64,000 nt of DNA from an uncultured Chitinophagaceae bacterium (GCA_964424665.1 CAYRJM010000001.1:15395-79394); one strand, 5' to 3'; numbered from the stretch's first letter, positions 1,533-57,705 are shown. The notes: generated from the sequence alone by a model not told the origin. Numbers and translations: made by a program.

Positions 1533-1534
1533 CT

Positions 1535-7016: not shown

Positions 7017-7027
7017 TTTCAACCAAT

Positions 7028-11799: not shown

Positions 11800-13356
11800 T
11801 TAATCTATTCTTGTTAGCCGCAGGGCCATGTATGGCTTATTGGGGATCGGAATGCTTCTTCCTTGAGTATCAACAAATTTATAGTCATTCAGTCTTTTTA
11901 TTTCAAACACCCCATCTACTGCTTTGATCGTCATATTCCAGGTGTCAATCAGCTCTGCCTTAAATTTCATACCATCTTCCAGCCCCTTATCCGGCAGCAA
12001 AAACCTCCATTGATCGGGCGTTTTCTTTCCGAAATATTTTAAATAATACTCCCCTATTTTACCTGCCATGTTCAAAATATAATACTGATCAATCGGATCT
12101 AAGGCCGGCGCGTCTTCAATAATTTTTTTGAGAAAAGCAATTCGCTCCGGACTTTTTCCAATCAATTTTCCACCTGTTGAAATCCATGGATTGTCTTCAA
12201 AAGCTTCGCCATGTGTAGCATAACCGCCACCAATGTAGGTGATCCAAAAGCGGTACGTCATTTCTTCACCCGTTAATTGCCCCCAACGCCTGTTGATATC
12301 CCCTTCATAATTAATTTCATCCAGAACAACAGGCTTTCTATAAATATCCCGTAAAAGTGGAACCACACCCGGAACATCAGCAGCATTGTAATACTGCATA
12401 CTCACATGAGATACCCACGGTTTTGTATAGTTATAAATACGGCCGGCATTATGGATCGATATAAGATGATGATAAGGGTCCAATCGCTTAATCTCCTTAA
12501 AGAGCGCAGTCCATTCTTCATCCGTCATACTTTCGATAAAGCTGTTTTCATTGGCCAGGCTCCACCAAACATTTCGATAAGCAGCAAAACGAGCAACACA
12601 GTAACGGACAAAACGTTTTCGGGTTGCCATATCCATTCTTTCGAATCCCCATCCTTCGTCATAGGGATTGAAGATAATAACATCCGCCTGAACACCTATG
12701 TTCCTTAATTTCAGAATACAGTTTTCCACCTTTTGAAAAAAAATCGGATTAAAACGCGACAGGTTCCAGTTGGCTTTAGCTGTTCCTTCAAACGGAAGAT
12801 TCGCCAATTTTCCAGGGCCCTTCAGGTACCTGTCATCGTAGGGAGGGATAACCAAAAAACGCGCCTTATTAAAAGGAGATTTTTTGAGGGTTTGAAGCGT
12901 TTGTTCAATCATTGTTTCGGATTGAAAATTCCATTGATAAATAGTAGTACCAAAAGGAATGTATTCAGAACTATCTGCAAAGGTGAAGTTATACATATCT
13001 TTTACACTCACCGGGCCATGGTTATCCGCTGAAGGGGCCGAGCAGATAAACTCCCCTTTAATATCATCCAGCGTATCCCTGTTACTATGGGTGACATAAG
13101 TCCACTTCCCTTCTGCGTTAGGCATAAACCTGATCTTGAATACACCGTTCCCATCATAAAACCCTTCGGGATTAAATACTTGGTCGCCGTGGCGAAACTC
13201 AGCAGACAGGTCAATTCCCACAAAAGGATTGCCTCCTTCCGGGCCATGAAGAGTCAGTTCAAAGACGTCCCATTTTTCAACTTTTTCCTGACTAAACGCT
13301 GCCTGAGCCATAAGCAAACAGGCCATAAGCAATAAACAATACCTTTTAATCTTCAT
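11800..13356 (-). CDS. DUF5060 / DUF4038-like (GH140 apiosidase-related) / DUF5605-type TIM-barrel glycosidase candidate
   Basis: The track ORF is 11800..13380 with a TTG start. The ATG at 13356 gives MKIKRYCLLLMACLLMAQAAFSQ, a good signal peptide. The N-terminal Ig-like block VEKWDVFELTLHGP...GKWTYVTHSN is followed by a TIM-barrel-like core and a C-terminal beta-sandwich (AELIDTWNMTI). The family assignment is from memory. Confidence 0.45.
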   Translation of the reverse strand: MKIKRYCLLLMACLLMAQAAFSQEKVEKWDVFELTLHGPEGGNPFVGIDLSAEFRHGDQVFNPEGFYDGNGVFKIRFMPNAEGKWTYVTHSNRDTLDDIKGEFICSAPSADNHGPVSVKDMYNFTFADSSEYIPFGTTIYQWNFQSETMIEQTLQTLKKSPFNKARFLVIPPYDDRYLKGPGKLANLPFEGTAKANWNLSRFNPIFFQKVENCILKLRNIGVQADVIIFNPYDEGWGFERMDMATRKRFVRYCVARFAAYRNVWWSLANENSFIESMTDEEWTALFKEIKRLDPYHHLISIHNAGRIYNYTKPWVSHVSMQYYNAADVPGVVPLLRDIYRKPVVLDEINYEGDINRRWGQLTGEEMTYRFWITYIGGGYATHGEAFEDNPWISTGGKLIGKSPERIAFLKKIIEDAPALDPIDQYYILNMAGKIGEYYLKYFGKKTPDQWRFLLPDKGLEDGMKFKAELIDTWNMTIKAVDGVFEIKRLNDYKFVDTQGRSIPIPNKPYMALRLTRID

Positions 13357-15799
13357 CTGTATCGTATTTTCTTTTTCCAAAATAAAAAGTCATTTGATTT
13401 GTTATTTCTCCCGCTTTGTTCCAGTTCGTTGTAGCTCCATGAGCAAAAACACTCCACCATTTAGACCTGGTTTTCTTTTGTCCATTAGACCAATAGGTAG
13501 TGTAGAGGATGGTTGCATATGGCGTGTGCTCTCTCGTCCATTTTAACGTACCATCCTTACTCCAGTATTTTTCTGTACCGGTTCGATGACCGTTGACGTA
13601 ATTGGTCACATATTGTTTTTGACCATTTTTATAGTACCACGTCTTTTGCCCGTTTAACAGAAAATTTCCATTGTTTCCTATCCATCCGCTGTAAGACAAT
13701 TTAATCTGTCCATTGGGGTATTTTTCCTCGTAATGTTTAATATCCGCTTCGGCAGGGAAGCCCGGATTTTCATACATCGGGGAATCGTAGTCAGAGAGTA
13801 TCCAAGCTTCATTAAACGCAAAATCAACAGCAGGATAACTTTTAGAGGAAACCAAATGGATCACCCCATTAGGCAGTTGGGCGACATCGCAGTAGCCAAT
13901 CGTACCAAAACCTTGTTGAGGTTTACCTTCATCCACCACGCCTCTCCACTCATTATGCGGCGGTGTCAAAGGCAGTTTTTTAATTGTCCAGGTTTTCCCT
14001 TCGTCTTGCGACAAAGCCACAAATGCCCCTCTTTGTTTAATACTTTCGGGGGGTGGCCCCTCGTCGTACATTTTACTGCTCTGAAAATCCCCTGCGAAAA
14101 GCAGGTTGCCGCTTTGCAATCTCATGATGATATGGCGTTGATTGCTGCCTACGGCAGGGAACGGTGTTTCCATCGCCTGGGTCCAGGTTTTTCCCAAATC
14201 AGAAGAATAACACTTTGGCGTATAACCATTTACGCTAGTGTTTTTGCCTCCAATAGCCAGAATTCTTCCGTCCTTCAACAATTCAAAGGCCGAATGCCTC
14301 CCGACTGTCCGGCCACCCTGATCATGCCAAGTCTTTCCATCATCTTTGCTGGCCCACAAGAAAGACTGTGGTCCATCGCCATCCATCGCCATAAAGATAA
14401 TACTATCGGGGCCTCTAAAAGCGTCGGAAATAGGTTGTGGGGTAATCGGACCGACAGCTCCTTTTACTACGGGGAAGGTCAGTTCACTCCAGGAAGCGCC
14501 ATTATCTGATGAGGTTGTAAATCTAAAGGGAGCCCTGCCAAAACCTCTGCCTCCACCGAAAAACCACAGTTTTCCATTGTCGTTCCACAACAAAGCCGAC
14601 TGATCATTTAATCCGGCCAAATCGTAAAATAAATTAGGCATATCCCATTCCTGAGAACCGTACCGCAACCGCGTTGCTACCATCGTGGTATTATTGGCAG
14701 ATTCACTCTTGCCCAATTGAGAGGAAAAAGCAATATAAAGCAAGTCGCCATTAGCGCATGCGGCCAATCCGCCGCTATGTAACCTACCAACGACACCACC
14801 ATCTAAGCCCACCGCCACGTCTTCATCCGGAAAAGTAAGGTCGGGAGGGCTGGAAATGAGCGGTCGGGCTTTAAAATAAGGCTTTTCGGGGTCAGGCCCG
14901 ATACCGGGATCTGCCTTTTTCTGACTAATTCCCTCAAAAGAAAATCCTAACTGAAAATCCAGGGGCTTGGTTTCAGGCAATGGGCCCATTACTACTCTAA
15001 ATCCTACGTAATGTGGCCGCGGTCCACTCCAGTTCTTATCCGGGTAAGCTGGTGGTAAGCTTGACCGGGTAAATGCAGTATAAAAAACTGAAGCAGTATC
15101 AGGCCGGTAAGTATCTGGTTTCCCATCGTCGATCTCCTTAATATCCAGCGGGCCGCCTCTCACCACTTTACTCCAGCTCTTGTCATAACCTACCGGATCT
15201 GTAACAGATGAATCCGGATAAGCGCCAAACCAATCGTAACACCATTCAGGCGCCTGAGAGGCCATGTTTTTTAATCCCCAGGGATTGACATCGTTGGCAG
15301 GCTGTCTATTGCCTGACCAAAAATAGGTAGCTGCTCCGGCCCTGGCGGCATATTCCCATTCCGCTTCTGTGGGCAAGCGATAAGGTTTACCTTCTTTTTT
15401 GCTCAGCCACGCACAAAAGGCCTGTGCCTCCTGCCAACTTACGCCCGTCACATAAGGTTCAAAATATCCGGTTCCTTCGTAGGCTGCTTTAAACTGCTTA
15501 AACTGTTCCACAGTTACTTCCTGAGTTCCCATGTAAAAGCCTTTACTAATCGTTACTTTATGCGTAGGGCCTTCACTCCAATAAGGAACATCTTTTGATC
15601 GATCCGTGAATTTTTGCAGCCGTAAGGAATCTTTTTTCGCCCCCATGATAAAACTACCCGAAGGAATATAAACCATTTTCATCCCGATAGAATTGGTAAA
15701 AGACTTACGGTCCTCCTGCCGCTTCGGTGCGCTGCAAGAAGTGAATAAGAAGACGACAAGGCAAAGCAGTACAATGATCTGATACCATCTTTTCAACAT
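13346..15799 (-). CDS. Multidomain lipoprotein: FGE/SUMF1-like domain + BNR/Asp-box sialidase-fold beta-propeller + MORN/YwqK-like repeats
   Basis: 817 aa with lipobox LFTSC. FGE-family motifs are HKVTISKGFYMGTQEVT, YRLPTEAEWEYAARAG, VVRGGP and VGFRVVMG. Asp-boxes are SSDNGASWS, SKDDGKTWH, SSDLGKTWT and SQDEGKTWT. The C-terminal repeats read YYKNGQKQYVTNYVNGHRTGTEKYWSKDGTLK. Confidence 0.75.
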   Translation of the reverse strand: MLKRWYQIIVLLCLVVFLFTSCSAPKRQEDRKSFTNSIGMKMVYIPSGSFIMGAKKDSLRLQKFTDRSKDVPYWSEGPTHKVTISKGFYMGTQEVTVEQFKQFKAAYEGTGYFEPYVTGVSWQEAQAFCAWLSKKEGKPYRLPTEAEWEYAARAGAATYFWSGNRQPANDVNPWGLKNMASQAPEWCYDWFGAYPDSSVTDPVGYDKSWSKVVRGGPLDIKEIDDGKPDTYRPDTASVFYTAFTRSSLPPAYPDKNWSGPRPHYVGFRVVMGPLPETKPLDFQLGFSFEGISQKKADPGIGPDPEKPYFKARPLISSPPDLTFPDEDVAVGLDGGVVGRLHSGGLAACANGDLLYIAFSSQLGKSESANNTTMVATRLRYGSQEWDMPNLFYDLAGLNDQSALLWNDNGKLWFFGGGRGFGRAPFRFTTSSDNGASWSELTFPVVKGAVGPITPQPISDAFRGPDSIIFMAMDGDGPQSFLWASKDDGKTWHDQGGRTVGRHSAFELLKDGRILAIGGKNTSVNGYTPKCYSSDLGKTWTQAMETPFPAVGSNQRHIIMRLQSGNLLFAGDFQSSKMYDEGPPPESIKQRGAFVALSQDEGKTWTIKKLPLTPPHNEWRGVVDEGKPQQGFGTIGYCDVAQLPNGVIHLVSSKSYPAVDFAFNEAWILSDYDSPMYENPGFPAEADIKHYEEKYPNGQIKLSYSGWIGNNGNFLLNGQKTWYYKNGQKQYVTNYVNGHRTGTEKYWSKDGTLKWTREHTPYATILYTTYWSNGQKKTRSKWWSVFAHGATTNWNKAGEITNQMTFYFGKRKYDTDED

Positions 15800-47597: not shown

Positions 47598-48269
47598 CTA
47601 TCTGCTTGCCTGAGCAGCTGCTCTCCTTTTCTTCCAGTTTTTCCTTTCCAGATCCAGGTTATAGCCCTCTTTAGATAAATAATTATTAATCCGTCCTTTA
47701 TATTTGCCAAACCACCAGTGTTTTTCCCTGGAAGACCCTCCGTCCATGGCATATTCTCTCGCTTCTATCAGATTGGCCATAATATACGTTTTTTGTTGTT
47801 CGGTAAGGCTGGGAATCATATCGACATATCCCTTGTAGGTAACTTCTAAAACCCCATAAGTCATCCCATCTTTAACCTGCCCGACCTGATCCGGCGTCAA
47901 TCTGGCTTGAAGTTTCCCAATAAAAGCCCGGTGCAATTTTTCCAGTTCACGCTGAGCAACCAGTTTAATCATCCTTTGTTTCAATTCCGTAGCGTCCTCA
48001 GAGAGATTCGCCTTTTTTAACAATTTTTCCTCTGCTTCTTTCAAGTCATAGACTTTTCCAATATTTTTGTACTGCTCAACAAGTATATTGGTCACAGCTT
48101 CTGCTTTAGCCGCATCCGAAAGGTGAAGAACGTCAACAATCTTTCGGGAGCGCTCAGTAAGGACCTTGGTATAGGCAGCCTCTTCTTCGGCTGTTTTAAC
48201 GAGTTGGGCGGTAGCAAAATGCCCGCTAAATAACATCGTCAGCACGACCAGGAAACGGAATTTTCTCAT
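47598..48269 (-). CDS. DUF3826-family secreted protein (function unknown)
   Basis: 223 aa with a signal peptide ending FATAQ. The body is helical and Lys/Glu-rich (EEEAAYTKVLTERSRKIVDVLHLSD...), as I recall for DUF3826. It is the promoter-proximal gene of block (iii). Confidence 0.6.
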   Translation of the reverse strand: MRKFRFLVVLTMLFSGHFATAQLVKTAEEEAAYTKVLTERSRKIVDVLHLSDAAKAEAVTNILVEQYKNIGKVYDLKEAEEKLLKKANLSEDATELKQRMIKLVAQRELEKLHRAFIGKLQARLTPDQVGQVKDGMTYGVLEVTYKGYVDMIPSLTEQQKTYIMANLIEAREYAMDGGSSREKHWWFGKYKGRINNYLSKEGYNLDLERKNWKKRRAAAQASR

Positions 48270-48490: not shown

Positions 48491-49369
48491 ATGAAAGCGC
48501 ATTTTCACATTGTACCCGTAATGATGCAAAACTCCTTTACAGTAAAGCATGAAGTGCAGTCAAACTTTGGAACTACCTGGCATTATCATCCTGAATTAGA
48601 ACTGCACTATGTTATCAAGGGAAACGGCACAAGATTCATTGGAAACAGCATAGAATCATTTTCAGAAGGAGAACTGGTGTTACTTGGTGAGAACCTTCCC
48701 CATACCTGGAAGTGTAACCAGGAATATTTCCAAGAGAAATCCAATTTAGAAGTTGAAGCAATTGTAATTCAATTTAGAAAAGATTTCTTGGGGGAAAGTT
48801 TCTTGAACCTTCCGGAATCGCATTTAATACCTCACCTGTTTGAAACGGCCAAATCCGGAATGATTATCAAAGGAAAAGTTAAAAAACAGATTATCCCGCT
48901 TATGCACGCTTCTTTACAGGCTACCGGGCTGGACCGCATAATAATAATGTTATCTATCCTAAAGGCCCTGGCGGAAAATAAGGAGTTTTCAACGATCACT
49001 GTTCCGCACAAATACCAGTTTAATTCGGACGAGCATGCAAAAAACCGGCTTGATAAAGTATATAGCTATACAATATCTAATTATAAGGAGGAGATCAGCC
49101 TCGAAGACATTTCCTCCATCAGCAACCTGAGTATAACGTCATTTTGCCGGTATTTTAAAATGATGACCAAAATGACGTATTACGATTTTCTTACGCGGAT
49201 CAGAATAAGCCAGGCTTGTCGTTTATTAATTGATGACAAGGTACCCACGAACATCATATGTTATGAATGTGGATTTAATAACATCTCGAATTTTTACAGG
49301 CATTTCAAGCGGATCACCGGTCTAACGCCTAAAGCATATAAGCAGTCTTATCTAAGTGGCGTTAACTAG
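48491..49369 (+). CDS. AraC-family transcriptional regulator (N-terminal cupin sensor + C-terminal double HTH)
   Basis: 292 aa. The cupin-like N-terminus reads WHYHPELELHYVIKGNGTRFIGN. The AraC HTH region reads LEDISSISNLSITSFCRYFK...ICYECGFNNISNFYRHFKRITGLTPKAYK. Confidence 0.9.
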   Translation: MKAHFHIVPVMMQNSFTVKHEVQSNFGTTWHYHPELELHYVIKGNGTRFIGNSIESFSEGELVLLGENLPHTWKCNQEYFQEKSNLEVEAIVIQFRKDFLGESFLNLPESHLIPHLFETAKSGMIIKGKVKKQIIPLMHASLQATGLDRIIIMLSILKALAENKEFSTITVPHKYQFNSDEHAKNRLDKVYSYTISNYKEEISLEDISSISNLSITSFCRYFKMMTKMTYYDFLTRIRISQACRLLIDDKVPTNIICYECGFNNISNFYRHFKRITGLTPKAYKQSYLSGVN

Positions 49370-49403: not shown

Positions 49404-50351
49404 TCATACAGCGGCGACCAAATCGATATTCAGCCTGTTAACCAGGTCTTTGTAATCCCGATAGAGTTGATCCAGGTCTTCGGATGTTTGCCGGGAAAAA
49501 ATTCCGACTTGCCGGCGCGAAAAGGTATTTATTTTAAGGCCTTTTTTCCGGAGAAGGTATTTGGCTACTACAGGATAAATATGATGCATTACATACATGT
49601 TGTCCATAAAAAACTTCTGAACCGCTATCGCCGCATTTTGCGTTTCAACGTCCAGATAATGGTCACAAAGCCAGACAATCAGTTCCGGGAAAAAATTACC
49701 CTGGATGCAGGATAAACCAGCCGCTCCCTCCTGTAAGGACGCTATAGCATTCCCGATATAGGCATCATAAAGTCCAAAGTTCTCCTTTTCGCTACAAGCC
49801 GCTAACTTTCCCTTAATACTGGCTATATCCAGGCTGGTGTCCTTATGATAATTCACTCTTCCGGTCTTCACAAAAGCGCCTAGCAGCGCCGGAGGCAATA
49901 CCCGCTTATAGGGGACCGGGCATTCATAGAAACCTACCGGTATATTATCCGTCAGATCCAGTAACCGGAACACCCTATCCTCCAATAGGCTATCAGGCTC
50001 GCTGGCTTCTGAAAGGAGGCTGGTAATGAGTATGACAGAGGTTACCCCTTTATCATATATTTTTTTTATCGCGTCGGCATTTTCTATTAATGAATTACCA
50101 AAACTACCTGTTGCTACAACCGGCACCCTTCCGTTGACCTGGGTGACTATATTTTCTATAATCATCAATCTTTCCTTCATCGACAATTCAAACATTTCAC
50201 TGGAAAGGCAATTAGCGAATAACCCGGATGCTCCGGCATTTAAATAGAACGCCGTTAACTCGGACAACGCCTTGTAGTCAACATCTCCGTTTTCTTTGAA
50301 AGGAGTTAACATTACGGGGACAAATCCCTTTTTTTCTTTAATCTGAATCAT
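49404..50351 (-). CDS. DHDPS/NAL-family aldolase, divergent subgroup (degenerate GTTGE motif)
   Basis: 315 aa. CLSSEMFELS replaces the usual GTTGE motif. The Tyr loop (VGFYECP) and Lys context (VNYHKDTS) are retained. It lies 6 nt downstream of the SSS transporter gene. Confidence 0.75.
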   Translation of the reverse strand: MIQIKEKKGFVPVMLTPFKENGDVDYKALSELTAFYLNAGASGLFANCLSSEMFELSMKERLMIIENIVTQVNGRVPVVATGSFGNSLIENADAIKKIYDKGVTSVILITSLLSEASEPDSLLEDRVFRLLDLTDNIPVGFYECPVPYKRVLPPALLGAFVKTGRVNYHKDTSLDIASIKGKLAACSEKENFGLYDAYIGNAIASLQEGAAGLSCIQGNFFPELIVWLCDHYLDVETQNAAIAVQKFFMDNMYVMHHIYPVVAKYLLRKKGLKINTFSRRQVGIFSRQTSEDLDQLYRDYKDLVNRLNIDLVAAV

Positions 50352-50357
50352 TTTATA

Positions 50358-51932
50358 CTAACTGTTATTTCGAACTATTTTCTGTGTAAAAAGCGGCAAC
50401 TTGGTAAGCAACATTCCAACTAAAAAAATGGTAAGTGTACCAATTACGATAATCATATTCGCATGAAGCGGATTTCTTAGATAGGCATACTCCGGAGATA
50501 TAAACCTGGACAAGCTCATCCATATAATTACGACCACGCCTATAATAGTTGCTGTCAGCGCTTCGTGGTTTCTGGATTGCCTGCATATAATCCCCAACAA
50601 AAATAAGCCCAACATACCACCGGCAAAGATCCCGGAAAGCTCCCACCAGATATCTAAAATGCTTTTAATGCCGATCATAGCTATCCCCGCCCCCATTCCC
50701 AGAAGGCCCACGATTACTGTCGTAATGTGTAACAATCTAAGCATTTGTCTGTCACTTAGATCAGATTTGACATAGCGTTTATAAATATCAATAGAAAATA
50801 CAGTGGCTGAAGCATTCATGCCTGAACTGATGGTACTCATGGCAGCTGACAATATTGCGGAGATAATAAGTCCCGTGACACCTACCGGTATCCTGTTGAC
50901 AATAAAATGGGGCATAACCTTGTCTCCAAAATCGGAAGGCTGAAGGTTTGAAGCCAAATGAGAAACTGCGGCAGCGTTGCCATCAGGAAGTAAATAACCG
51001 GCCACTTCATGTTCAAGTCCCGAAAGTAACTTCGGATGTAGTTGATAGAAAGCGAACAAAAACGAACCTATGATAAAAAACAACAAGGATACTGGAATAT
51101 AAGACCAAACACACAGCCAGATGGATTTGGCGGCGGCTTTTTCGGATTTGGCCGTATGGTACCGCTGAACATAATTCTGATCAATGCCGAAGTTGTTTAA
51201 GTTAATAAAAAAACCATACAATAAAACCACCCAAAAAGTAGACGTGGTAAAGTCAAAAGAAAAACTACCAAGGCTAAACTTATTCTTGGCCATATTTATA
51301 TCTATAATGTTGCCAAGCCCTCCCGGTGTATCCAGGACAATTATCACCAAAACAATCAGGGCCCCCACAGTAAGGATAATAGCCTGAACAACATCCGTCC
51401 AGATGATAGCCTCCATACCTCCCATTACCGTATAGATAATAATGCAGACCCCCACTACCAGCATAATCTGCGCCATGGAGTATCCGGTTAATGCTTGCAA
51501 ACAAAGAGCGATACCAAAGAAAATAGAGCCGATCCTGGCTAACTGTGTCAGTAAAAAACAAATGACCGCATACGTTCGTGCCCATGGCCCAAAACGGCGT
51601 TCAAAATGCGTATAAGCAGAAACTTCTCCGCTTTTCCTGTAAAAAGGGATAAAATACTTGGCAGCACACCATGCTGCTAACGGCATCGACAGGCTAAATA
51701 CAAAAGCATTCCAATTTCCACCGAAAGCCTTCCCCGGAACACCTAAAAACGTATTACTGCTTAAAAAGGTTGCGTATATAGAAATACCGACTGCCCAGGC
51801 AGGAATAAGGCCGGAAGCCTTTGTAAACTGAGCCGAATTTTTATTTTTTTTAGAAAAATAAAAACCAACAAACAGCATCGCCAGCAGATAAATAACAATT
51901 ATACTCAAGTCTATGAATAGTAGGCTATGCAT
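50358..51932 (-). CDS. Sodium:solute symporter (SSS) family transporter
   Basis: 524 aa, polytopic and hydrophobic throughout, with about 13 predicted TM stretches by eye. The SSS-like N-terminus reads YLLAMLFVGFYFSKK...SAQFTKASGLIPAW. Confidence 0.85.
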   Translation of the reverse strand: MHSLLFIDLSIIVIYLLAMLFVGFYFSKKNKNSAQFTKASGLIPAWAVGISIYATFLSSNTFLGVPGKAFGGNWNAFVFSLSMPLAAWCAAKYFIPFYRKSGEVSAYTHFERRFGPWARTYAVICFLLTQLARIGSIFFGIALCLQALTGYSMAQIMLVVGVCIIIYTVMGGMEAIIWTDVVQAIILTVGALIVLVIIVLDTPGGLGNIIDINMAKNKFSLGSFSFDFTTSTFWVVLLYGFFINLNNFGIDQNYVQRYHTAKSEKAAAKSIWLCVWSYIPVSLLFFIIGSFLFAFYQLHPKLLSGLEHEVAGYLLPDGNAAAVSHLASNLQPSDFGDKVMPHFIVNRIPVGVTGLIISAILSAAMSTISSGMNASATVFSIDIYKRYVKSDLSDRQMLRLLHITTVIVGLLGMGAGIAMIGIKSILDIWWELSGIFAGGMLGLFLLGIICRQSRNHEALTATIIGVVVIIWMSLSRFISPEYAYLRNPLHANMIIVIGTLTIFLVGMLLTKLPLFTQKIVRNNS

Positions 51933-51976
51933 AAGCAGTCTCTTTTTGGCTTTCGGTCACGCGTGTAACTACTCCA

Positions 51977-51984
51977 CAAATGTA
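51977..51984 (-). promoter_or_regulatory. Candidate Bacteroidota -7 box (TACATTTG = TAnnTTTG) for an internal promoter ahead of the SSS/aldolase pair
   Basis: There is an exact consensus match on the minus strand, 45 nt upstream of the ATG at 51932. It sits inside the only large (135-nt) gap in block (v). Confidence 0.3.
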
Positions 51985-52067
51985 CTCTTCCCTGTCACGG
52001 GGATAGCATGAGATTTTAGCCTTCTCTTATAACATCTTATCCACGCATTCCTGCTTTTTCCAAAAAA

Positions 52068-53015
52068 TCAGTTTTGAAAAATTTTTTTCAGATAGCGGGC
52101 GTTCGCACCATAATTCCAAACTCGGTTGTGTACATCGCTTACATCTCTGGACCGTTCCATAACCAACCATCCTTTCCAACCCATCGCGTCTAAAGTAGCT
52201 TTTACTTTAAGCAGGTCTATTGCCGGATCGTTTTGTAACCACACACCATCTTCATTGGTACAATGAATCTGACAAATTCTGCTTTTCCCGAGAATTTTTA
52301 ATTCCTGGCATAAATCCCTGTTTCCCCGTATGGGGTTCTCAAAATTAAAATAGCTTTGAATGGCAGTTGAACCTATGTCATTTAATAAGTCAACTTCCCC
52401 GGAAGCGTCAAGCGCTGTTTCAATGCCTACAATTACTTTAGCTTGTTCCGCATATTTTGCAACCGTTTGTAACCGTTTAACCACGGGCGTCCTCAATTCG
52501 GGGTATTTCACCAGGTCACCTTGGATTCCCAGGGGTAAAAATGCTATTTTTACCTTCATTTGCTGCATGGTATCAATACAGCCTTTAACTAAATCGACGG
52601 CCTCTTTTCTTTCGGGGAATGACTGTGCGTAAAATGCAGACATTGACAGGGAACATATTTTTAACCCATAATTTGCCGCGGTTTCAAGAAAAGCCTGACG
52701 AACCGTGGGATCAGACAGCTGGTTGTCAAAGGCCTTACGATTACCCAGACCGCCCATGTCTACTTCCACGCCATTTACACCAATTCTTTTTGACAATTTA
52801 AACGCGCCTATGTCCTGGCGCTTTAGAATCATCCAGTCACAAACCCCTACGGAATAACGATGTGTCGATGCTGTTGTATCCTCTGCCACTAAAGAAGCAG
52901 CACGTAGCAGCTGTTTTGAAACCAGAACGCCCCCGGCGGTAAGTGCTGTCCACATCATAAACCTACGCCGATTTATTGCTATTTCTGTATAAACTTTACT
53001 TTTGTCCATTTCCAT
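52068..53015 (-). CDS. Tat-exported xylose-isomerase-like TIM-barrel protein (annotation class: sugar phosphate isomerase/epimerase)
   Basis: 315 aa. The twin-arginine signal is NRRRFMMWTALTAGGVLV. The TIM-barrel pattern includes GVNGVEVDMGG, KIAFLPLG, IVGIETA and WLVMER. Confidence 0.7.
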   Translation of the reverse strand: MEMDKSKVYTEIAINRRRFMMWTALTAGGVLVSKQLLRAASLVAEDTTASTHRYSVGVCDWMILKRQDIGAFKLSKRIGVNGVEVDMGGLGNRKAFDNQLSDPTVRQAFLETAANYGLKICSLSMSAFYAQSFPERKEAVDLVKGCIDTMQQMKVKIAFLPLGIQGDLVKYPELRTPVVKRLQTVAKYAEQAKVIVGIETALDASGEVDLLNDIGSTAIQSYFNFENPIRGNRDLCQELKILGKSRICQIHCTNEDGVWLQNDPAIDLLKVKATLDAMGWKGWLVMERSRDVSDVHNRVWNYGANARYLKKIFQN

Positions 53016-53043
53016 TATTTTTATTCCCTTGAAAGCTAGTCAA

Positions 53044-53766
53044 TCATTTGGCATGCACCTTATCATAGTAATCCTGATAAATCTGCCGCCAATTCCTGCC
53101 ATGTGTATTCAGATAGTCTTCACACTTTGTTTTATAGATTTCAAATATTGCAGAAATTTCTTTCATGCTTTTAAAACCTATAGCCTGTGCCCTAGCCTGC
53201 TTTAAATAGCCTAAAATAACCGCTTGTTCCTTTGGCTTAAGATCAGGAACTATCGTTTTATAGGCGGAAAACGTAAAATCCACCTTACCAATGGTCCACT
53301 TATCTAAAATAGCCTCCACCTGCTTTTTAGTGAGGTTTTCATTGAGCCTTTTCATGAAATTACCTTGAACAGAATCCGGAATAGAAGAATCTATTATAAT
53401 CTGTCGGTCCAGTTCACTCAATGGTAGTCCTGTCTTGGGGTTGATACCGGCTGGAACGCTTTCATACGAATGGCTATTGTGCCAGTCTCTTATAGCCTTT
53501 AGATAATCGGCAACTACCTTACTTAGCATCTCTACTTTCTGGTTATCCTTTAAATTCAAATCCTGAATCCATTGTACCGCTTTCCGTTTTTGCTCGGCAC
53601 TTGGAACTGCCCTAATGCCATCCTTCAGGAATAATTTTACTTCTTGTTTAGTTACAATCTGGCTTATAGCCTGGAAGGGGCATAATCCGACTAAGGTTAC
53701 CGCGCAGATAATTATTATTTTTCTCACAATCAAATATTTTATAAAATTTATTATTGAGCGGGCCAA
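53044..53766 (-). CDS. DUF3826-like secreted protein (second copy)
   Basis: The track ORF starts at a TTG (53766). The GVG at 53727, read as GTG, would give MRKIIIICAVTLVGLCPFQAISQ, a cleaner signal peptide. Its helical composition and length are similar to ORF 47598..48269. Confidence 0.5.
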   Translation of the reverse strand: MARSIINFIKYLIVRKIIIICAVTLVGLCPFQAISQIVTKQEVKLFLKDGIRAVPSAEQKRKAVQWIQDLNLKDNQKVEMLSKVVADYLKAIRDWHNSHSYESVPAGINPKTGLPLSELDRQIIIDSSIPDSVQGNFMKRLNENLTKKQVEAILDKWTIGKVDFTFSAYKTIVPDLKPKEQAVILGYLKQARAQAIGFKSMKEISAIFEIYKTKCEDYLNTHGRNWRQIYQDYYDKVHAK

Positions 53767-54872
53767 TGACCATCTGCCATTTTTGAAGATTCAATCTTAG
53801 CCGGATCAATAACGACATGTTTTATGCGGGTACGCCTCCAGGTATAAACAATATGTACCAGTCCATCTTTAGTTTGAATAACCGCCGGATAAGAATATTC
53901 ATCATCAATGTTCTTCAGCTCGGGGTGAGGTACTTCAATAACGTTGGTTGCAGACCAATTCTCTCCATCCGTGGAAACAGCTACATTCAAGGGGGCCCTT
54001 TCTCCCTTATATTCCCCTTTGGGAGGCCATACGTGGTTGTACACTAAAAGTTGCCTGCCATCAGACAAGGTTACCGCATCTATGCCCGACCCATTGCCCG
54101 GTAAAGAAGTTTTCTCCAGCGGACTCCAGGTTTTCCCGTTATCAGAAGACCAGGTCTGAAAAATCGTCCTGTTTTTACTGCGACATAAGGCTTGTAGCCG
54201 GCCACCCTGATAAAGTAAAATCGTTGGTTGAATAGCTTCATAACCGCCGTCTTTTTTTACATCTGTCGTTTTATGCCATGTTTTTCCAAAATTATCCGAC
54301 CATTCGAAATGAACGTTCCAACCATTATCTTCTGTACTGGAACCGCTTAATAAAATTCCGTTCTCAAGCAGCACCGGTTTATTCTTGATCGGACCTAAAA
54401 TACCTTCTGGTAATTTCGTTGCCGCAGACCATGTCTTGCCTCCGTCTGAGGAGGTTTTCACCCATCCTTTCCATGTAGAGGGGCTGGGGCCAATTTTATA
54501 ATACAATTGCAGTTTCCCGTCGGGCACTTGAAACAACACAGGATTCCAACAGGGGTAGCGCACGGTATCTGAAACTACCCCGTCGGCAACTTCAACAGGT
54601 TGTGTCCATTGTCCGTTTTCTTTTCTACTCACCCATATACCTACGTTATCAGCCCCTTCCTTATCACCGCCAAACCAGGCAGCGACAATTCCGGTTGGTG
54701 TTTCGGCAATAGTCGATGCATGGCAGGATTTAAACGGCGCTTCTGTGAAGACAAATTCATCGATAAGTATTCCTTTTCTCCACCGATTTGTTTCATCCGA
54801 TTTCTTTTTGTTTTGACAACCCGTCAGCATTAAACAAATAAATGCTGACCACAGTATTCCATTTTTTAGCAT
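53751..54872 (-). CDS. BNR/Asp-box sialidase-fold lipoprotein (non-canonical: no FRIP motif)
   Basis: 373 aa with lipobox MLTGC. The Asp-boxes are SSDGGKTWS, SDNFGKTWH, SSDNGKTWS and STDGENWS. The N-terminus reads FKSCHASTIAETPTGIVAAWFGG. There is no RIP tripeptide anywhere in the protein. Confidence 0.75.
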   Translation of the reverse strand: MLKNGILWSAFICLMLTGCQNKKKSDETNRWRKGILIDEFVFTEAPFKSCHASTIAETPTGIVAAWFGGDKEGADNVGIWVSRKENGQWTQPVEVADGVVSDTVRYPCWNPVLFQVPDGKLQLYYKIGPSPSTWKGWVKTSSDGGKTWSAATKLPEGILGPIKNKPVLLENGILLSGSSTEDNGWNVHFEWSDNFGKTWHKTTDVKKDGGYEAIQPTILLYQGGRLQALCRSKNRTIFQTWSSDNGKTWSPLEKTSLPGNGSGIDAVTLSDGRQLLVYNHVWPPKGEYKGERAPLNVAVSTDGENWSATNVIEVPHPELKNIDDEYSYPAVIQTKDGLVHIVYTWRRTRIKHVVIDPAKIESSKMADGHWPAQ

Positions 54873-54891: not shown

Positions 54892-57663
54892 TTACAATAA
54901 TGATTTAAACTCGTAATGACCGGATTTAAGCTTTATAATAGCAAATCCATTTTTCATTTTTTCAAATTTAACGTTATCCGCATTATCTATAGAAATACCG
55001 TTTTCTGTTACCGACTGCGGAGACGACGCCGGAAGATAAACTACGGCAGAGGTATTTCCGGGAATGGAAATATCCCAATAGAAGGCTTTATCATTTTTTT
55101 CCCAATTGCTTGTAATCAATCCATGAACGGAATGATAAGAAGCATCTACAAATTGTAGGCTGTCCGTAAGCTGTGGCTTCATAATGATCTGCTTAAACCC
55201 CGGAGCAGTGGCTGAACTTTTTATCCCCGCCACATCTTCAAAATACCATACCACCAAATCACCCAAAAGCATGACATGGTTTCTGGAGCACATCCATGGA
55301 TTGGCTTTATCACCATTCCACAATTCCCATATTGTTGTCGCTCCATTGGCGACCATATAGCCCCAACCTGGATATTCAGTGGTATTTACGATGCTAAATG
55401 CCAGGTCTGGACGACCATACTTTGTTATTCCACGCATAATCCATTGCGTGCCCAGTGTCCCTGTGCTGATGTGCCTATCATATGCTTTGATTGTTTTTTT
55501 AACAATGTTATCAAACACCTCTTGCAAGTACGCTTGAGGAGTTATTCCAAAAATCAAGGGCAATAAGTTAGCGGTTACCGTATTGTTACTGTATTGCCCG
55601 GTCGTTTTGTTCAGGAATTTTTTATTAAAAGCGCTCCTTATCTTTCCGGCTAAAGTTAAATATTCAAGCCGGTCCTCTTTTTTGTTCAGTCTTTCAGCAA
55701 AACGAGACATCAAATCGAGAATATGGTAGTAGTAGGCAGTACCGATTAAAGTGCCATCGGTTATTCTGGACGGCTCCTTCGCATGAATCAATTCAGTATA
55801 TTTTGGCGGCATGCACCAATCACCGAACTTATCATCATAGATTAAATAATTTTCCATGTATGACCTTTCGATATGTCGTACCCATCTTTTCATAGAAGGA
55901 TAATGCTTTTCAATAGGTCGAAGCAAACCATATTGATGATACAACATCTCTGCCACCTGAAAATACGCTGCAGGCCAGGCGACATCATCAATATAGTATT
56001 TCCAAAAAGCCGGAGCCACATCAGGAATAATGCCGTCAGCTGTTTGTGCTTCGTCAATATCCTCCAGCCATTGAGCATATAACTTAGCATTGCCAAAAAT
56101 AAAGCTCTCCCCGTATGAACTCATCGTACGATCTCCCATCCAAGGCATACGTTCATCCCGCTGAGGACAGTCAACCGGCAGACCTTTGTAATTGCTGTTA
56201 ATCCCCCAGCAGGCATTATGGTATATCTTATTAAGCAAAGTGTTTGAGCTTTCGAAGTTTCCGGTTGTTTTCAGGCCGTCATATACCACCATGCCACTAA
56301 AGTTGGCTTTATCAGGAATCCCCGGATAATTTGTTATCTCCACATACCTAAAGCCATGATAAACAAAAGCGGGTTCCCACACTTCCAATCCTTCGCCGCT
56401 AAGCGTATAAACATCTGTTGCCTTGGCTTCTCTCAGGTTAGTAGTTGCCAATTCTCCGTTTTGTTGCAGGGTTTCTGCAAAACGCAGGGTGACTTGTCTG
56501 CCGCGTTTTCCTTTAACTTTCATTTTGATCCATCCCGCCATATTTTGCCCCATATCCATGATATAAACACCTGGGCGGAGATAATGAATAGTAACGGGAT
56601 TAATGGTATCCATCACCTTCACCTTTTCACTCATTTGAGCTTTCAACCGCCCCCCGGGAGCCGATACCAATTCTACCGGCAACCAGGTCGTATCATTGAA
56701 GGCAACCGTATTCCAGCCGGGCATTGTTTTTCTTGCATCATATTCTGCTCCATCGTAAATATTATTTGTTCGCATCGGGCCATCAGCGGTTACTTTCCAG
56801 GACGAATTACTTACAATGGTTTTTTTCGTTCCGTCAGCATATTTGATTTCCAATTGCAGTATCATTTTCGGAAAGCCAAAATTCCTGATTTTATAGGTCT
56901 TATAATTTTGCCTCATGGTAAAAAATAATCCATTGCCCAGTATGGTCCCGATTGCATTTTTTCCTGTTTTGACGTCATCAGTTACATCATAGGTGTTATA
57001 CAACACACTTTTAGTATAGTCTGTCGGGGAAGGAGTTAACACCTGATGGCCAATTCTCCTTCCATTTAGGTATAATTGGTAATAACCCAGGCCACAAATA
57101 AAAACAGTAGCGCTTTGAATATTTTTGGTGCACTTAAACTCCTTTCTAAAATACCTGGCGGACAGCCTGGAAAATTGCGCTTTTGCATTGTCCCAGGGGA
57201 ATGAACGGTCCAACCCGATCCACGCCGCCTTCCAGTCCTCTGGATTTAATAATCCCATCGTCCAATACTGTACTTTACTCCATGAAGACGCGCCTTTATT
57301 CGTCCAAACCCTTGCTCTCCAGAAGTATTTAGACCCGCTTTTCAATACCGATCCCGCGTACACAACATGAATGGACTGATCCGATTTTACTTTTCCCGAA
57401 TTCCAGATATCTCCGATTCCGTTTAATAACTTTTCTTTTGACGAAGCTACCACTATTTGATAGTGCGTTTGTTCTATTCCCCGCCCATTTCCGTAAATTT
57501 CCCAGCTTAAACGGGGCTTTACCACATCAATACCCAACGGATTAACGGATAATTCACATCGTAAGTTCTGTAAATAAATCTTCTCTTTCTTACCCATGCC
57601 CATTATAGGTAAGAAAAAAAACATACAGAGTACGGCCAGAAAATATTTACTTCTCTTATTCAT
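54892..57663 (-). CDS. GH78 alpha-L-rhamnosidase (third copy)
   Basis: The track ORF is 54892..57678 with a GTG start. The ATG at 57663 gives MNKRSKYFLAVLCMFFFLPIMG. Motifs are LRCELSVNPLGIDVVKPRLSWEI and LPVDCPQRDERMPWMGD. Confidence 0.9.
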   Translation of the reverse strand: MNKRSKYFLAVLCMFFFLPIMGMGKKEKIYLQNLRCELSVNPLGIDVVKPRLSWEIYGNGRGIEQTHYQIVVASSKEKLLNGIGDIWNSGKVKSDQSIHVVYAGSVLKSGSKYFWRARVWTNKGASSWSKVQYWTMGLLNPEDWKAAWIGLDRSFPWDNAKAQFSRLSARYFRKEFKCTKNIQSATVFICGLGYYQLYLNGRRIGHQVLTPSPTDYTKSVLYNTYDVTDDVKTGKNAIGTILGNGLFFTMRQNYKTYKIRNFGFPKMILQLEIKYADGTKKTIVSNSSWKVTADGPMRTNNIYDGAEYDARKTMPGWNTVAFNDTTWLPVELVSAPGGRLKAQMSEKVKVMDTINPVTIHYLRPGVYIMDMGQNMAGWIKMKVKGKRGRQVTLRFAETLQQNGELATTNLREAKATDVYTLSGEGLEVWEPAFVYHGFRYVEITNYPGIPDKANFSGMVVYDGLKTTGNFESSNTLLNKIYHNACWGINSNYKGLPVDCPQRDERMPWMGDRTMSSYGESFIFGNAKLYAQWLEDIDEAQTADGIIPDVAPAFWKYYIDDVAWPAAYFQVAEMLYHQYGLLRPIEKHYPSMKRWVRHIERSYMENYLIYDDKFGDWCMPPKYTELIHAKEPSRITDGTLIGTAYYYHILDLMSRFAERLNKKEDRLEYLTLAGKIRSAFNKKFLNKTTGQYSNNTVTANLLPLIFGITPQAYLQEVFDNIVKKTIKAYDRHISTGTLGTQWIMRGITKYGRPDLAFSIVNTTEYPGWGYMVANGATTIWELWNGDKANPWMCSRNHVMLLGDLVVWYFEDVAGIKSSATAPGFKQIIMKPQLTDSLQFVDASYHSVHGLITSNWEKNDKAFYWDISIPGNTSAVVYLPASSPQSVTENGISIDNADNVKFEKMKNGFAIIKLKSGHYEFKSLL

Positions 57664-57705
57664 GATAATTAAAAGCACCTAAATACCTTCGCTTTTTGCC
57701 TGTTG

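Follow-up and report, generated by a model that had tools for sequence, protein, structure and literature searches.

Gene content of the locus

We analysed a 64,000-nucleotide stretch of DNA from an uncultured soil bacterium of the Chitinophagaceae, hereafter called the window. It is an RG-II degradome, with three GH78 proteins together with GH106, GH127, GH95, GH2 and GH29 members and an apiosidase-like protein. An initial annotation had proposed that five adjacent minus-strand genes in this window mediate the release, import and cleavage of an RG-II ulosonic acid, Kdo or Dha. This gene set should be widened to include a GH78 gene (54892-57678) and a convergent AraC gene (48491-49369), giving the following features:

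54892..57678, minus strand: GH78 alpha-L-rhamnosidase, with matches to all five GH78 Pfam domains
53751..54872, minus strand: BNR_2 (sialidase-fold) lipoprotein (Pfam BNR_2, 3.1e-87)
53044..53766, minus strand: DUF3826 protein with a signal peptide (PF12875, 3.4e-60)
52068..53015, minus strand: xylose-isomerase-like TIM barrel with a Tat leader (PF01261, 1.4e-19)
51977..51984, minus strand: TACATTTG box, inside the 135-nt gap between the TIM and SSS genes
50358..51932, minus strand: SiaT-like SSS Na+/solute symporter (PF00474, 1.4e-44)
49404..50351, minus strand: divergent DHDPS/NAL-family protein of the 'CLSSEM' subfamily (PF00701, 1.2e-24), hereafter called the lyase
48491..49369, plus strand: AraC-family regulator (HTH_18, 3.7e-20, and a cupin domain)

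The sequence features described in the initial annotation were recovered. The BNR lipoprotein carries four Asp-boxes (SSDGGKTW, SDNFGKTW, SSDNGKTW and STDGENW) and lacks a FRIP motif, and we also read a lipobox (LTGC). The profile matches listed above agree with the DUF3826-like and TIM barrel assignments, the latter protein having a twin-arginine leader (NRRRFMMW), and the SSS gene is followed after 6 nt by the DHDPS-family gene, whose product harbours CLSSEMF, FYECP and HKDTS.

The GH78 gene is 19 nt upstream of the BNR gene. The AraC gene converges with the lyase gene and diverges from the DUF3826-GH78 operon that follows; a second DUF3826 copy (47598-48269) adjoins another GH78 gene. AraC regulators of ~60% identity are found at the lyase's side in 63 of 80 relative loci, and AraC-type regulators have been reported to head RG-II loci in Flavobacterium (bioRxiv 10.64898/2026.03.13.711244). 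The six genes from GH78 to lyase make up two separable units, A (GH78, BNR_2, DUF3826 and Tat-TIM) and B (SSS and lyase).

Unit A, a putative periplasmic release unit

At the position equivalent to the FRIP/RIP motif, which is absent from the BNR protein, the sequence reads CHAST, with an invariant His residue (H51). The other invariant residues in an alignment of 121 homologues are R231, R292, R347, Y328, E181 and E313; the three Arg residues, identified from this alignment, are located outside the RIP position. The model for GH143, the Dha hydrolase family (PF24067, the propeller of the BT_1020 N-terminal domain), is not among the Pfam matches of this protein and has no match in the whole genome, which is 78% complete.

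Kdo is an eight-carbon ulosonic acid, present in RG-II side chain C (Rha-a1,5-Kdo-a2,3-GalA). BNR homologues with 57-63% identity correspond to the C-terminal part of GH78-BNR fusions, which are single polypeptides of 1180-1280 residues. Of the 120 best long BNR homologues, 107 have a GH78 domain (51-57% identity) fused on the N-terminal side of BNR, and fusions in this set include 24 GH78-BNR-TIM and 5 BNR-esterase-like-TIM proteins. According to PMC13501991, which summarises Ndeh et al. 2017, BT1013 of Bacteroides thetaiotaomicron is composed of an N-terminal rhamnosidase and a C-terminal Kdo hydrolase and targets side chain C of RG-II. Judged by this reported architecture, unit A may represent a split form of BT1013: the two predicted activities and their order are kept, but the two halves are separate genes, and the DUF3826 and Tat-TIM genes come next here, with the TIM domain fused on in roughly one homologue out of five. 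For the GH78 protein of unit A, which corresponds to the N-terminal half of BT1013-type fusions, the predicted function is removal of the Rha cap from side chain C, and the BNR_2 lipoprotein is a candidate Kdo hydrolase. The DUF3826 domain also occurs in BT1017 and BT1022, for neither of which RG-II binding was detected (PMC7939467); we regard the DUF3826 protein as a marker of RG-II loci.

The TIM barrel protein carries the leader NRRRFMMWTALTAGGVLV, in which a twin-arginine motif precedes a hydrophobic stretch, and the same Tat leader is present in its orthologue from locus L082, the closest syntenic relative. It is predicted to be exported to the periplasm by the Tat pathway. The best folds for its AlphaFold2 model (pLDDT 86) are those of UlaE, D-tagatose/D-psicose 3-epimerases and IolE, with E values of 1e-12 for UlaE and ketose 3-epimerases; the TM scores with these ketose 3-epimerase relatives are 0.62-0.69 (normalised to the model) and 0.66-0.78 (normalised to the target), at 13-16% identity. 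In the model, the barrel strands bear conserved acidic and His residues (E84, D86, E199, H251 and E287). Candidates for a Glu/Asp/His/Glu metal-binding tetrad, defined by alignment of 22 orthologues, include E199, H251 and E287, all three invariant, and D234, which is nearly invariant. The protein differs from ketose 3-epimerases by its predicted Tat export and by its fusion or adjacency to the predicted GH78-Kdo hydrolase, and since Kdo has no hydroxyl at C3, plain 3-epimerization cannot be its reaction.

The initial annotation had also considered that this protein might be a periplasmic 3-keto-glycoside lyase, linking it to a DUF1080 finding; its partner in oxidative glycan cleavage would then be the product of the DUF1080 gene (7028-8899). 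The xylose-isomerase-like superfamily, to which this predicted periplasmic protein belongs, includes such lyases. In addition, the neighbourhood of a lyase-BNR-SSS trio in genome G116 contains a DUF1080 gene as well as a copper-dehydrogenase/DUF1080 pair, and in G315 the TIM gene has a GFO/IDH/MocA gene 2.6 kb away. Nevertheless, 29 of the 120 best long BNR homologues combine a TIM domain with BNR, GH78 being present or absent, and none of the 120 joins TIM to a DUF1080 or oxidoreductase domain; TIM orthologues (55-61% identity) are encoded at most ~3 kb from the BNR gene in seven of the eight genomes that hold one. With the DUF1080 gene of the window 43 kb away and ketose 3-epimerases as the nearest folds, we regard this assignment as highly improbable. 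We favour a role for the TIM barrel alongside the predicted Kdo hydrolase in the periplasm. The TIM gene sits beside the BNR gene in lyase-positive and lyase-negative genomes alike; as a putative unit for release in the periplasm, GH78-BNR-(DUF3826)-TIM occurs both in RG-II loci that have the lyase and in others that lack it.

Unit B, a SiaT-like symporter and a divergent DHDPS-family lyase

Among solved structures, SiaT, a symporter for sialic acid (5nv9), is by far the best match to the SSS protein at 3.6e-72, and the second SSS structure comes at 1.4e-41. The SiaT residues that bind the carboxylate (S60, T63 and R135) correspond to S58, T61 and R133, which are invariant in 82 orthologues; retention of this site suggests that the substrate is an acid taken up as such. 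The positions that accommodate the glycerol tail and anomeric hydroxyl of Neu5Ac (T58 and Q82 in SiaT) are occupied by F56 and L/I81, which speaks against transport of sialic acid. We propose the symporter as a candidate Kdo importer.

The PF00701 match of the lyase spans residues 8 to 294 of 315, and its AlphaFold2 model matches DHDPS/NAL structures with a probability of 1.00. The Schiff-base Lys of DapA (GVKDA motif) has its counterpart in K170 (YHKDTS) and the catalytic Tyr (YNVP) in Y142 (FYECP), K170 and Y142 being invariant in a subfamily with the strict signature FANCLSSEM / YECPxPYK / YHKDTS. The GxxGE carboxylate motif (GTTGE or GSTGE) is replaced by CLSSE, with L49 and S50 as the equivalents of T44 and T45. 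Similarly, the TPYY/TPFY relay Tyr is not kept: the sequence reads TSLL (L112 and L113), L112 being the equivalent of Y107. Without the DapA/NAL relay residues (L49 and L112 instead), the chemistry may differ from that of a plain aldolase. The protein falls below every NCBIfam equivalog cut-off, including those for NanA (25.3 bits versus 382 for TIGR00683, 35.8 versus 281 for NF003164), DapA (71.2 versus 206 for TIGR00674) and KdgD (42.5 versus 374 for TIGR03249, over the N-terminal 113 residues only). Other DHDPS-family genes, which are candidates for DapA, are present elsewhere in the genome.

This departure from the canonical relay at T44 and Y107 would also suit a Schiff-base dehydratase of the KdgD or L-2-keto-3-deoxyarabonate dehydratase type, which would convert an imported keto-deoxy acid sugar to a diketo acid with no retro-aldol cleavage. 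Partial NCBIfam matches to KdgD, at 42-44 bits and confined to the N-terminal 110 residues, are consistent with such an activity, as is a PDB match to L-KDA dehydratase. Sister sequences with the same motifs (38-40% identity) occur in an aldarate-like context, between genes for a GarD/UxaA-type dehydratase and an aldehyde dehydrogenase, with an FAA hydrolase; Schiff-base dehydratases of the DHDPS superfamily operate in aldarate-like contexts too. However, that context fits a dehydratase-aldolase-aldehyde dehydrogenase route equally well, and the KdgD scores are far under the cut-off of 374 and lower than the DapA scores. Beside the RG-II-type lyases, no aldehyde dehydrogenase or diketo-acid enzyme is conserved; an aldose isomerase is conserved there, alone or accompanied by a kinase. 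A dehydratase thus appears quite improbable, and we consider the protein a candidate Kdo aldolase, with pyruvate and D-arabinose as predicted products. The reverse condensation of D-arabinose and pyruvate to Kdo has been described for NAL-family enzymes (PMC4016182).

Genetic context and co-occurrence in relatives

The SSS and lyase genes are adjacent in 77 of 80 relative loci, all of the RG-II type. In genomes of the same family, the gene orders are [GH78-BNR fusion]-SSS-lyase (G315) and [GH78-BNR]-SSS-FucI-like-lyase (G251), and in G116, outside the class of the window's bacterium, lyase, BNR and SSS are contiguous with neither GH78 nor GH143. In most Sphingobacteriaceae loci the BNR and lyase genes are not adjacent, and the neighbours are GH2, GH143 or GH43-like genes. 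We then determined co-occurrence in a sample of 401 genomes of the phylum, in which counts are not phylogenetically independent. BNR is present in 13 of the 14 lyase-positive genomes and GH143 in 8, and four complete genomes (G116, G331, G227 and G385) harbour lyase and BNR without GH143. Two large families of the sample gave no lyase (0/28 in f5, of which 8 carry BNR, and 0/87 in f24). Bacteroides and most Flavobacterium strains were reported to release Kdo but to leave it in the medium (bioRxiv 10.64898/2026.03.13.711244); the distribution of the lyase is consistent with that report, f5 and f24 being sample labels that we do not equate with those genera. The SSS-lyase pair is an optional, putatively catabolic add-on to RG-II loci. 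Comparative genomics thus supports the core proposal of the initial annotation, release, import and cleavage of an RG-II ulosonic acid, but not a single conserved module.

A FucI-like isomerase (~72% identity) is encoded less than 10 kb from the lyase in 34 of the 80 loci. Among genomes checked for this isomerase, 6 of 13 with the lyase and 0 of 7 without the lyase had it, and in G043 an FGGY kinase gene comes next. In the window's genome (78% complete), we found neither a D-arabinose isomerase, FucI-like or canonical FucI, nor an FGGY kinase of the type neighbouring the lyase. The linked aldose isomerase fits an aldose product, D-arabinose, rather than the acid that would result from Dha cleavage.

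As many sugars are released from RG-II, the pair might handle another acid, of the KDG, L-KDR or L-KDF type (derived from GalA, rhamnose, fucose or L-galactose) or derived from aceric acid, its placement in RG-II loci reflecting only shared regulation. DHDPS-family aldolases exist for KDG, L-KDR and L-KDF types, and YagE and an archaeal KDG aldolase are among the matches of the lyase. Aceric acid, for which we know of no described catabolic route, is likewise left in the medium by Bacteroides. Nevertheless, non-phosphorylative routes require a dehydrogenase, a lactonase and a dehydratase ahead of the aldolase, and none of these is conserved near the pair across the 80 loci. Kdo and Dha are the sole RG-II sugars released as 4-hydroxy-2-keto acids, the symporter keeps the SiaT carboxylate site, and the isolated trio of G116 links the lyase to a sialidase-fold hydrolase. 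We therefore view another acid as rather unlikely.

Dha has the same C4-C6 configuration and 2-keto-3-deoxy acid head as Kdo, and this likeness makes it a conceivable substrate of the SSS-lyase pair, with cleavage to pyruvate and a four-carbon aldehydo-acid. A GH143-type protein (BT_1020 beta-propeller) is encoded directly upstream of SSS-lyase in L082, and GH143 occurs in the 8 lyase-positive genomes mentioned above. The lyase nonetheless tracks BNR better than GH143, as illustrated by the four genomes devoid of the latter, and the FucI-like isomerase and FGGY kinase encoded beside it are enzymes expected for an aldose product. Moreover, a separate five-gene cassette at the start of the window (Fe-ADH, DHDPS#2, PdxA, DUF1537 kinase and SSS#2) would cover each step from Dha to pyruvate, DHAP and CO2. 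In G101 this cassette lies 7 kb from GH143, with no lyase or BNR match in that genome; on the other side, it is missing from GH143-bearing Sphingobacteriaceae (0/7 in family f6). It is a better fit to Dha than the SSS-lyase pair, for which we deem Dha an unlikely substrate. Of the two substrates initially envisaged, Kdo is therefore favoured by the co-occurrence of lyase and BNR and by the isomerase and kinase that travel with the lyase, and Dha is better assigned to the window-start cassette.

Proposed route for Kdo

Considering domain identities, motifs, fusions, gene order and co-occurrence, we propose, with a probability of roughly 0.55, that the locus pairs one unit for releasing the Kdo of RG-II side chain C with another for its catabolism, all substrates and reactions being predictions from these sequence data. 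In the periplasm, the GH78 enzyme would take off the rhamnose cap, and the BNR_2 lipoprotein would then hydrolyse the Kdo ketoside, with the DUF3826 protein as a putative accessory protein. The Tat-exported TIM barrel, possibly a metal-dependent enzyme similar to ketose 3-epimerases, would act at the release step; we speculate that it might work on the keto form of freed Kdo, for instance by accelerating the interchange of anomers or ring forms, or some other change that proceeds through enolisation. Free Kdo would enter the cytoplasm through the SiaT-like symporter, its carboxylate bound by S58, T61 and R133, and the CLSSEM-type lyase would form a Schiff base through K170 and cleave it to pyruvate and D-arabinose. 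In relatives, the FucI-like isomerase and FGGY kinase encoded beside the lyase would convert D-arabinose to a D-ribulose phosphate.

Kdo aldolase activity (EC 4.1.2.23) was reportedly described by Ghalambor and Heath in 1966. The predicted lyase reaction is the same, but the EC entry is defined by activity only and nothing ties that enzyme to the CLSSEM family. A 2025 paper cites Kdo aldolase without a gene (PMC12199768). In the literature searched, we found no reference gene for EC 4.1.2.23 and no published gene assignment for a Kdo release-import-cleavage route.

Sialic-acid clusters comprise the sialidase NanH, a SiaT or NanT carrier, the lyase NanA and the periplasmic mutarotase NanM. The locus is predicted to follow a similar scheme: a sialidase-fold exo-hydrolase would free a 2-keto-3-deoxy acid sugar outside the cytoplasm, a SiaT-type SSS importer with a conserved carboxylate site would take it up, and a DHDPS/NAL Schiff-base lyase would yield pyruvate and an aldose that is isomerised and phosphorylated. 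In contrast with those clusters, the hydrolase has no FRIP motif, the residues for the glycerol tail are altered in the symporter and the lyase is not NanA but belongs to its own CLSSEM subfamily. NanE, NanK and NagA/B genes are absent, with the FucI-like isomerase and FGGY kinase of relatives instead, and this is a plant-pectin locus with Kdo as the predicted sugar. Unlike B. thetaiotaomicron, reported to leave freed Kdo in the medium, the locus adds an importer and a lyase. If our proposal is correct, an RG-II locus supplies genes for Kdo import and breakdown, beyond Kdo release.

The exact TAnnTTTG box noted in the initial annotation is present in the 135-nt gap upstream of the SSS gene (TACATTTG). 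With 50 occurrences in the window versus 64 expected by chance, the motif carries no statistical weight, and we take it as a weak hint of a candidate Bacteroidota -7 promoter element and of an internal promoter ahead of unit B.

Organization of the locus

All six features reported in the initial annotation of this RG-II locus, from the BNR_2 lipoprotein gene to that of a divergent DHDPS-family lyase, were recovered on the minus strand. With the adjacent GH78 and AraC genes, they are arranged as follows.

Features of the locus
54892-57678, minus strand: GH78 rhamnosidase, 19 nt upstream of the BNR gene
53751-54872, minus strand: BNR_2 lipoprotein with lipobox LTGC and four Asp-boxes, FRIP motif absent
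53044-53766, minus strand: DUF3826 protein
52068-53015, minus strand: xylose-isomerase-like TIM barrel with twin-arginine leader RRRF
135-nt gap after the TIM gene, minus strand: holds TACATTTG (TAnnTTTG box)
50358-51932, minus strand: SSS transporter
49404-50351, minus strand: DHDPS-family lyase, 6 nt after the SSS gene, with CLSSEMF, FYECP and HKDTS motifs
48491-49369, convergent with the lyase gene: AraC regulator

The feature is real and conserved. These genes had been read as a module for an ulosonic acid, Kdo or Dha; gene context and motifs support the release-import-cleavage scheme, and four lines favour Kdo over Dha. We consider a Kdo release, import and cleavage system the most probable reading, at roughly 55%. 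The GH78, BNR, DUF3826 and TIM genes would form its release unit, and the SSS and lyase genes its catabolic unit.

The RG-II degradome of the window includes three GH78, GH106, GH127, GH95, GH2, GH29 and an apiosidase-like protein. Its source is a Bacteroidota assembly of 3.2 Mb, 78% complete. Sequencing runs with window DNA come from one study and are labelled soil metagenome, which may be the source sample; no RNA runs carrying this DNA were listed. The TAnnTTTG box is not enriched, with 50 occurrences in the window and 64 expected by chance, and scans of the window for sigma-70 promoters and terminators gave background levels only.

The window harbours two DUF3826 genes. One (47598-48269) is directly upstream of a GH78 gene, and the other (53044-53766) is separated by one gene, that of the BNR protein, from a different GH78 gene upstream.

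A predicted split release enzyme

For side chain C of RG-II, a review (PMC13501991, citing Ndeh 2017) describes BT1013 of B. thetaiotaomicron as a two-domain enzyme, with a GH78 rhamnosidase at the N-terminus and a Kdo hydrolase at the C-terminus. Longer proteins related to the BNR protein were sought, and the best 120 matches analysed (42-63% identity; 54-63% for those fused to GH78). Among these 120 proteins, 83 are GH78-BNR fusions of ~1180-1280 residues, 24 are GH78-BNR-TIM triple fusions of ~1530 residues, and 5 are BNR-esterase-like-TIM fusions of ~1100 residues. The GH78 and TIM parts of the fusions share 51-58% identity with the window's own GH78 and TIM proteins, and the order of the domains is that of the genes in the window. 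Given these fusions, with matching identity and order, the window GH78 and BNR proteins are predicted to be a split BT1013-type enzyme.

DUF3826 is a general marker of RG-II loci. It is present in BT1022 and at the C-terminus of BT1017, two proteins with no detected RG-II binding (PMC7939467).

The esterase-like domain, of ~480 residues with weak GCE_fung/AXE1 matches, occupies the middle of the BNR-esterase-TIM fusions (P0167, P0175, P0191, P0208 and P0240). It is also encoded directly before the TIM gene in genomes G315 and G251 (L083 5874-7343 and L090 4245-5672). The sole match in the window's genome, at 36% identity, is located on the same contig, ~74 kb past the window end.

Legume proteins of 678-727 residues from Clitoria and Crotalaria (P0137 and P0151), annotated as 'Sialidase domain-containing protein', share 42% identity with the BNR protein over ~89% of the bacterial protein. 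Since plants make RG-II containing Kdo, a plant Kdo-directed hydrolase is conceivable.

The putative Tat-exported TIM barrel

The triple fusions also tie the putative Tat-exported TIM barrel to the BT1013-type enzyme. Ten sampled genomes, five lyase-positive and five lyase-negative, were examined for TIM orthologues. Eight of them contain one, at 55-61% identity, and in seven of these the TIM and BNR genes are within ~3 kb of each other. As the TIM gene thus sits beside the BNR gene with or without the lyase, its product is predicted to belong to the periplasmic release step and not to cytoplasmic catabolism.

Its AlphaFold model (pLDDT 86) is closest in fold to UlaE, D-tagatose and D-psicose 3-epimerases and IolE, and acidic and His positions of the barrel are conserved; a PDB sequence search yielded no solved relative. 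Plain 3-epimerisation of Kdo is impossible because C3 of this sugar carries no hydroxyl. A speculative possibility is that it acts on freed Kdo through an enolisation-based reaction or by interconverting ring forms, with a purpose akin to that of the sialic-acid mutarotase NanM. The conserved GH78-BNR-TIM fusions suggest that this putative periplasmic partner of the predicted Kdo hydrolase is an extra, as yet unexplained component of side-chain C processing. Neither the fusions nor the gene neighbourhoods support the earlier proposal that it is a DUF1080-coupled 3-keto-glycoside lyase.

Homologues of the copper-dehydrogenase/DUF1080-PA14 pair of the window (5037-8899), together with a small DUF1080 protein, are found in genome G116, which lies outside the window's class (L085 4-3545 and 11163-11798). 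They flank an isolated lyase-BNR-SSS trio.

The transporter and the lyase

The closest solved relative of the SSS protein is the sialic-acid symporter SiaT, at 3.6e-72, the next match being at 1e-41. The carboxylate ligands of SiaT, Ser60, Thr63 and Arg135, are invariant in 82 SSS orthologues, and other residues stand in place of Thr58 and Gln82, the ligands of the glycerol tail. This combination fits a predicted substrate that is an acid sugar related to sialic acid and not identical with it.

Relatives of the lyase with 56-66% identity occur in Pedobacter, Mucilaginibacter, Arcticibacter, Arcicella, Fibrella and Olivibacter, where they are annotated solely as 'dihydrodipicolinate synthase family protein'. 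The invariant motifs of the subfamily are FANCLSSEM, GFYECPVPYKR and YHKDT. In an alignment with DapA, lyase K170 and Y142 fall on the Schiff-base Lys and the catalytic Tyr, and Leu occupies the relay positions T44 and Y107 (DapA numbering). The protein falls below every NCBIfam equivalog cut-off, including those of DapA, NanA, KdgD, HpaI-like and archaeal KDG aldolase, and in a fold search DapA, YagE and NAL structures matched about equally well (model-normalised TM ~0.6-0.65), so that no subfamily was singled out.

Of 80 related genome loci, 77 have the SSS gene directly upstream of the lyase gene, 63 have an AraC gene convergent with the lyase gene, and 61 have a DUF3826 gene after that for the AraC regulator. 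Complete reading of two neighbourhoods, those of a Pedobacter locus and of the closest syntenic relative, showed RG-II loci with genes for GH95, GH2-malectin, GH28, GH78, GH143, an apiosidase-like protein and SusC/SusD.

The range of the lyase subfamily extends beyond RG-II, possibly to a further acid-sugar route. Sister lyases with 38-40% identity carry the same CLSSEM motifs, and in genome G331 (L094 7370-14070) sister lyases and an SSS carrier are flanked by genes for a GarD/UxaA-type dehydratase and an aldehyde dehydrogenase; an FAA hydrolase gene lies close by. Such surroundings would suit a dehydratase-aldolase route as well as a KdgD-like Schiff-base dehydratase, and members of the subfamily may therefore act as aldolases or as dehydratases.

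Kdo versus Dha

Gene orders in the window's own family link the lyase to the release enzyme, namely [GH78-BNR]-SSS-lyase in G315 and [GH78-BNR]-SSS-FucI-like-lyase in G251. In G116, lyase-BNR-SSS stand alone, and both GH78 and GH143 (PF24067), the Dha hydrolase family, are absent. The lyases of these three genomes share ~40% identity and keep the signature motifs. Of the 401 genomes in a phylum sample, 14 encode the lyase, 40 the BNR protein and 16 GH143; BNR co-occurs with the lyase in 13 of the 14 genomes and GH143 in 8, counts that include non-independent relatives and hence overstate the association. Four complete genomes possess the lyase and BNR without GH143.

A FucI-like protein of 545-551 residues is a conserved companion of the lyase. 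It has a weak Fucose_iso_C match and is labelled 'putative FucIase' in the Atlas (score 0.97), and a PDB sequence search found no solved relative. Its gene is within 10 kb of the lyase gene in 34 of 80 loci. Among the genomes checked, 6 of 13 with the lyase yielded this protein, and 0 of 7 without the lyase did. In G043, an FGGY kinase gene follows the FucI-like gene. D-arabinose, the product of Kdo cleavage, would need an aldose isomerase and a kinase, and the acid from Dha would not; the linked isomerase and kinase thus favour Kdo. In the window genome (78% complete), we found no FucI-like protein, canonical FucI (PF07881) or GH143, and the FGGY kinase on the window's contig is part of an ordinary araBDA L-arabinose operon.

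RG-II breakdown is deemed enzymatically solved in B. thetaiotaomicron, and the fate of its rare sugars is not. Sources of Kdo are pectin, the walls of algae and bacterial LPS. According to a 2026 preprint (bioRxiv 10.64898/2026.03.13.711244), D-Kdo stays behind in the medium of B. thetaiotaomicron and of most Flavobacterium strains, and Kdo pathways in other gut microbes are unconfirmed. The distribution of the lyase, not found in two large families of our sample (f5 and f24), is suggestive of a tie to this Kdo-leaving physiology of Bacteroides and Flavobacterium. Kdo aldolase activity (EC 4.1.2.23) has been known since 1966, and a 2025 paper still names no gene for it (PMC12199768). NAL enzymes form Kdo from D-arabinose and pyruvate with ~1% relative activity (PMC4016182). 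Within the literature searched, we found no paper on Kdo catabolism, utilization or degradation.

The window system would work like the sialic-acid (nan/sia) clusters, transposed to a plant-pectin ulosonic acid, and we rate it as a variant of the sialic-acid-utilisation type. Unlike in those clusters, the lyase is not NanA, the hydrolase is not a classical FRIP sialidase, and the sugar pocket of the carrier is changed. If the Kdo reading is correct, the EC 4.1.2.23 activity gains a gene family with a simple sequence signature, Kdo consumers and cross-feeders become predictable among soil and rhizosphere Bacteroidota (Pedobacter, Mucilaginibacter, Arcticibacter and others), and a natural Kdo-specific aldolase could be used in synthesis. 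A wider proposal is rather unlikely to hold as a whole: the CLSSEM lyase would be the Kdo aldolase gene product, catalysing the first step of a pathway with a SiaT-like carrier, the lyase, a FucI-like D-arabinose isomerase and an FGGY kinase, and the Tat-TIM protein fused to the GH78-Kdo hydrolase would be a so far unrecognised RG-II degradome enzyme performing a new periplasmic reaction on Kdo or side chain C.

A candidate Dha route

A five-gene cassette with an IclR regulator alongside spans window positions 1-2686 and the upstream contig (L089 1164-7081, corresponding to G000:C1:12163-18080 in the window's own genome).

Genes of the cassette
Fe-ADH
Canonical GTTGE/KDS DHDPS protein, 22% identity to the first lyase
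PdxA-family dehydrogenase
DUF1537 kinase, best NCBIfam match D-threonate kinase, below cut-off
Second SSS transporter

All five sampled genomes with the cassette share a single gene order. In G101, it is located 7 kb from GH143, and neither the lyase nor BNR was matched in that genome. The cassette fits as a better candidate for Dha than the SSS-lyase pair. Aldol cleavage of Dha would yield pyruvate and a threo-configured four-carbon aldehydo-acid, according to stereochemistry derived on paper, and reduction of the latter would give D-threonate. In the D-threonate pathway, the DtnK/PdxA2 steps yield DHAP and CO2, and the same steps could complete the route here.

The window also encodes an FGE-sulfatase + BNR_2 lipoprotein (13346-15799), a 42% homologue of which (L092 1544-3928) is found ~1.5 kb upstream of the cassette in G185. 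This lipoprotein may represent another kind of Dha hydrolase, one with a sialidase fold; PF24067 has no match in G185 or in the window's genome.

Upstream of the IclR gene, an odd mix of genes lies beside the pectin locus (G000:C1:3899-11195, L087), coding for two family-III CoA-transferases, two solute-binding proteins, a GFO/IDH/MocA oxidoreductase and a RhaT-type permease.
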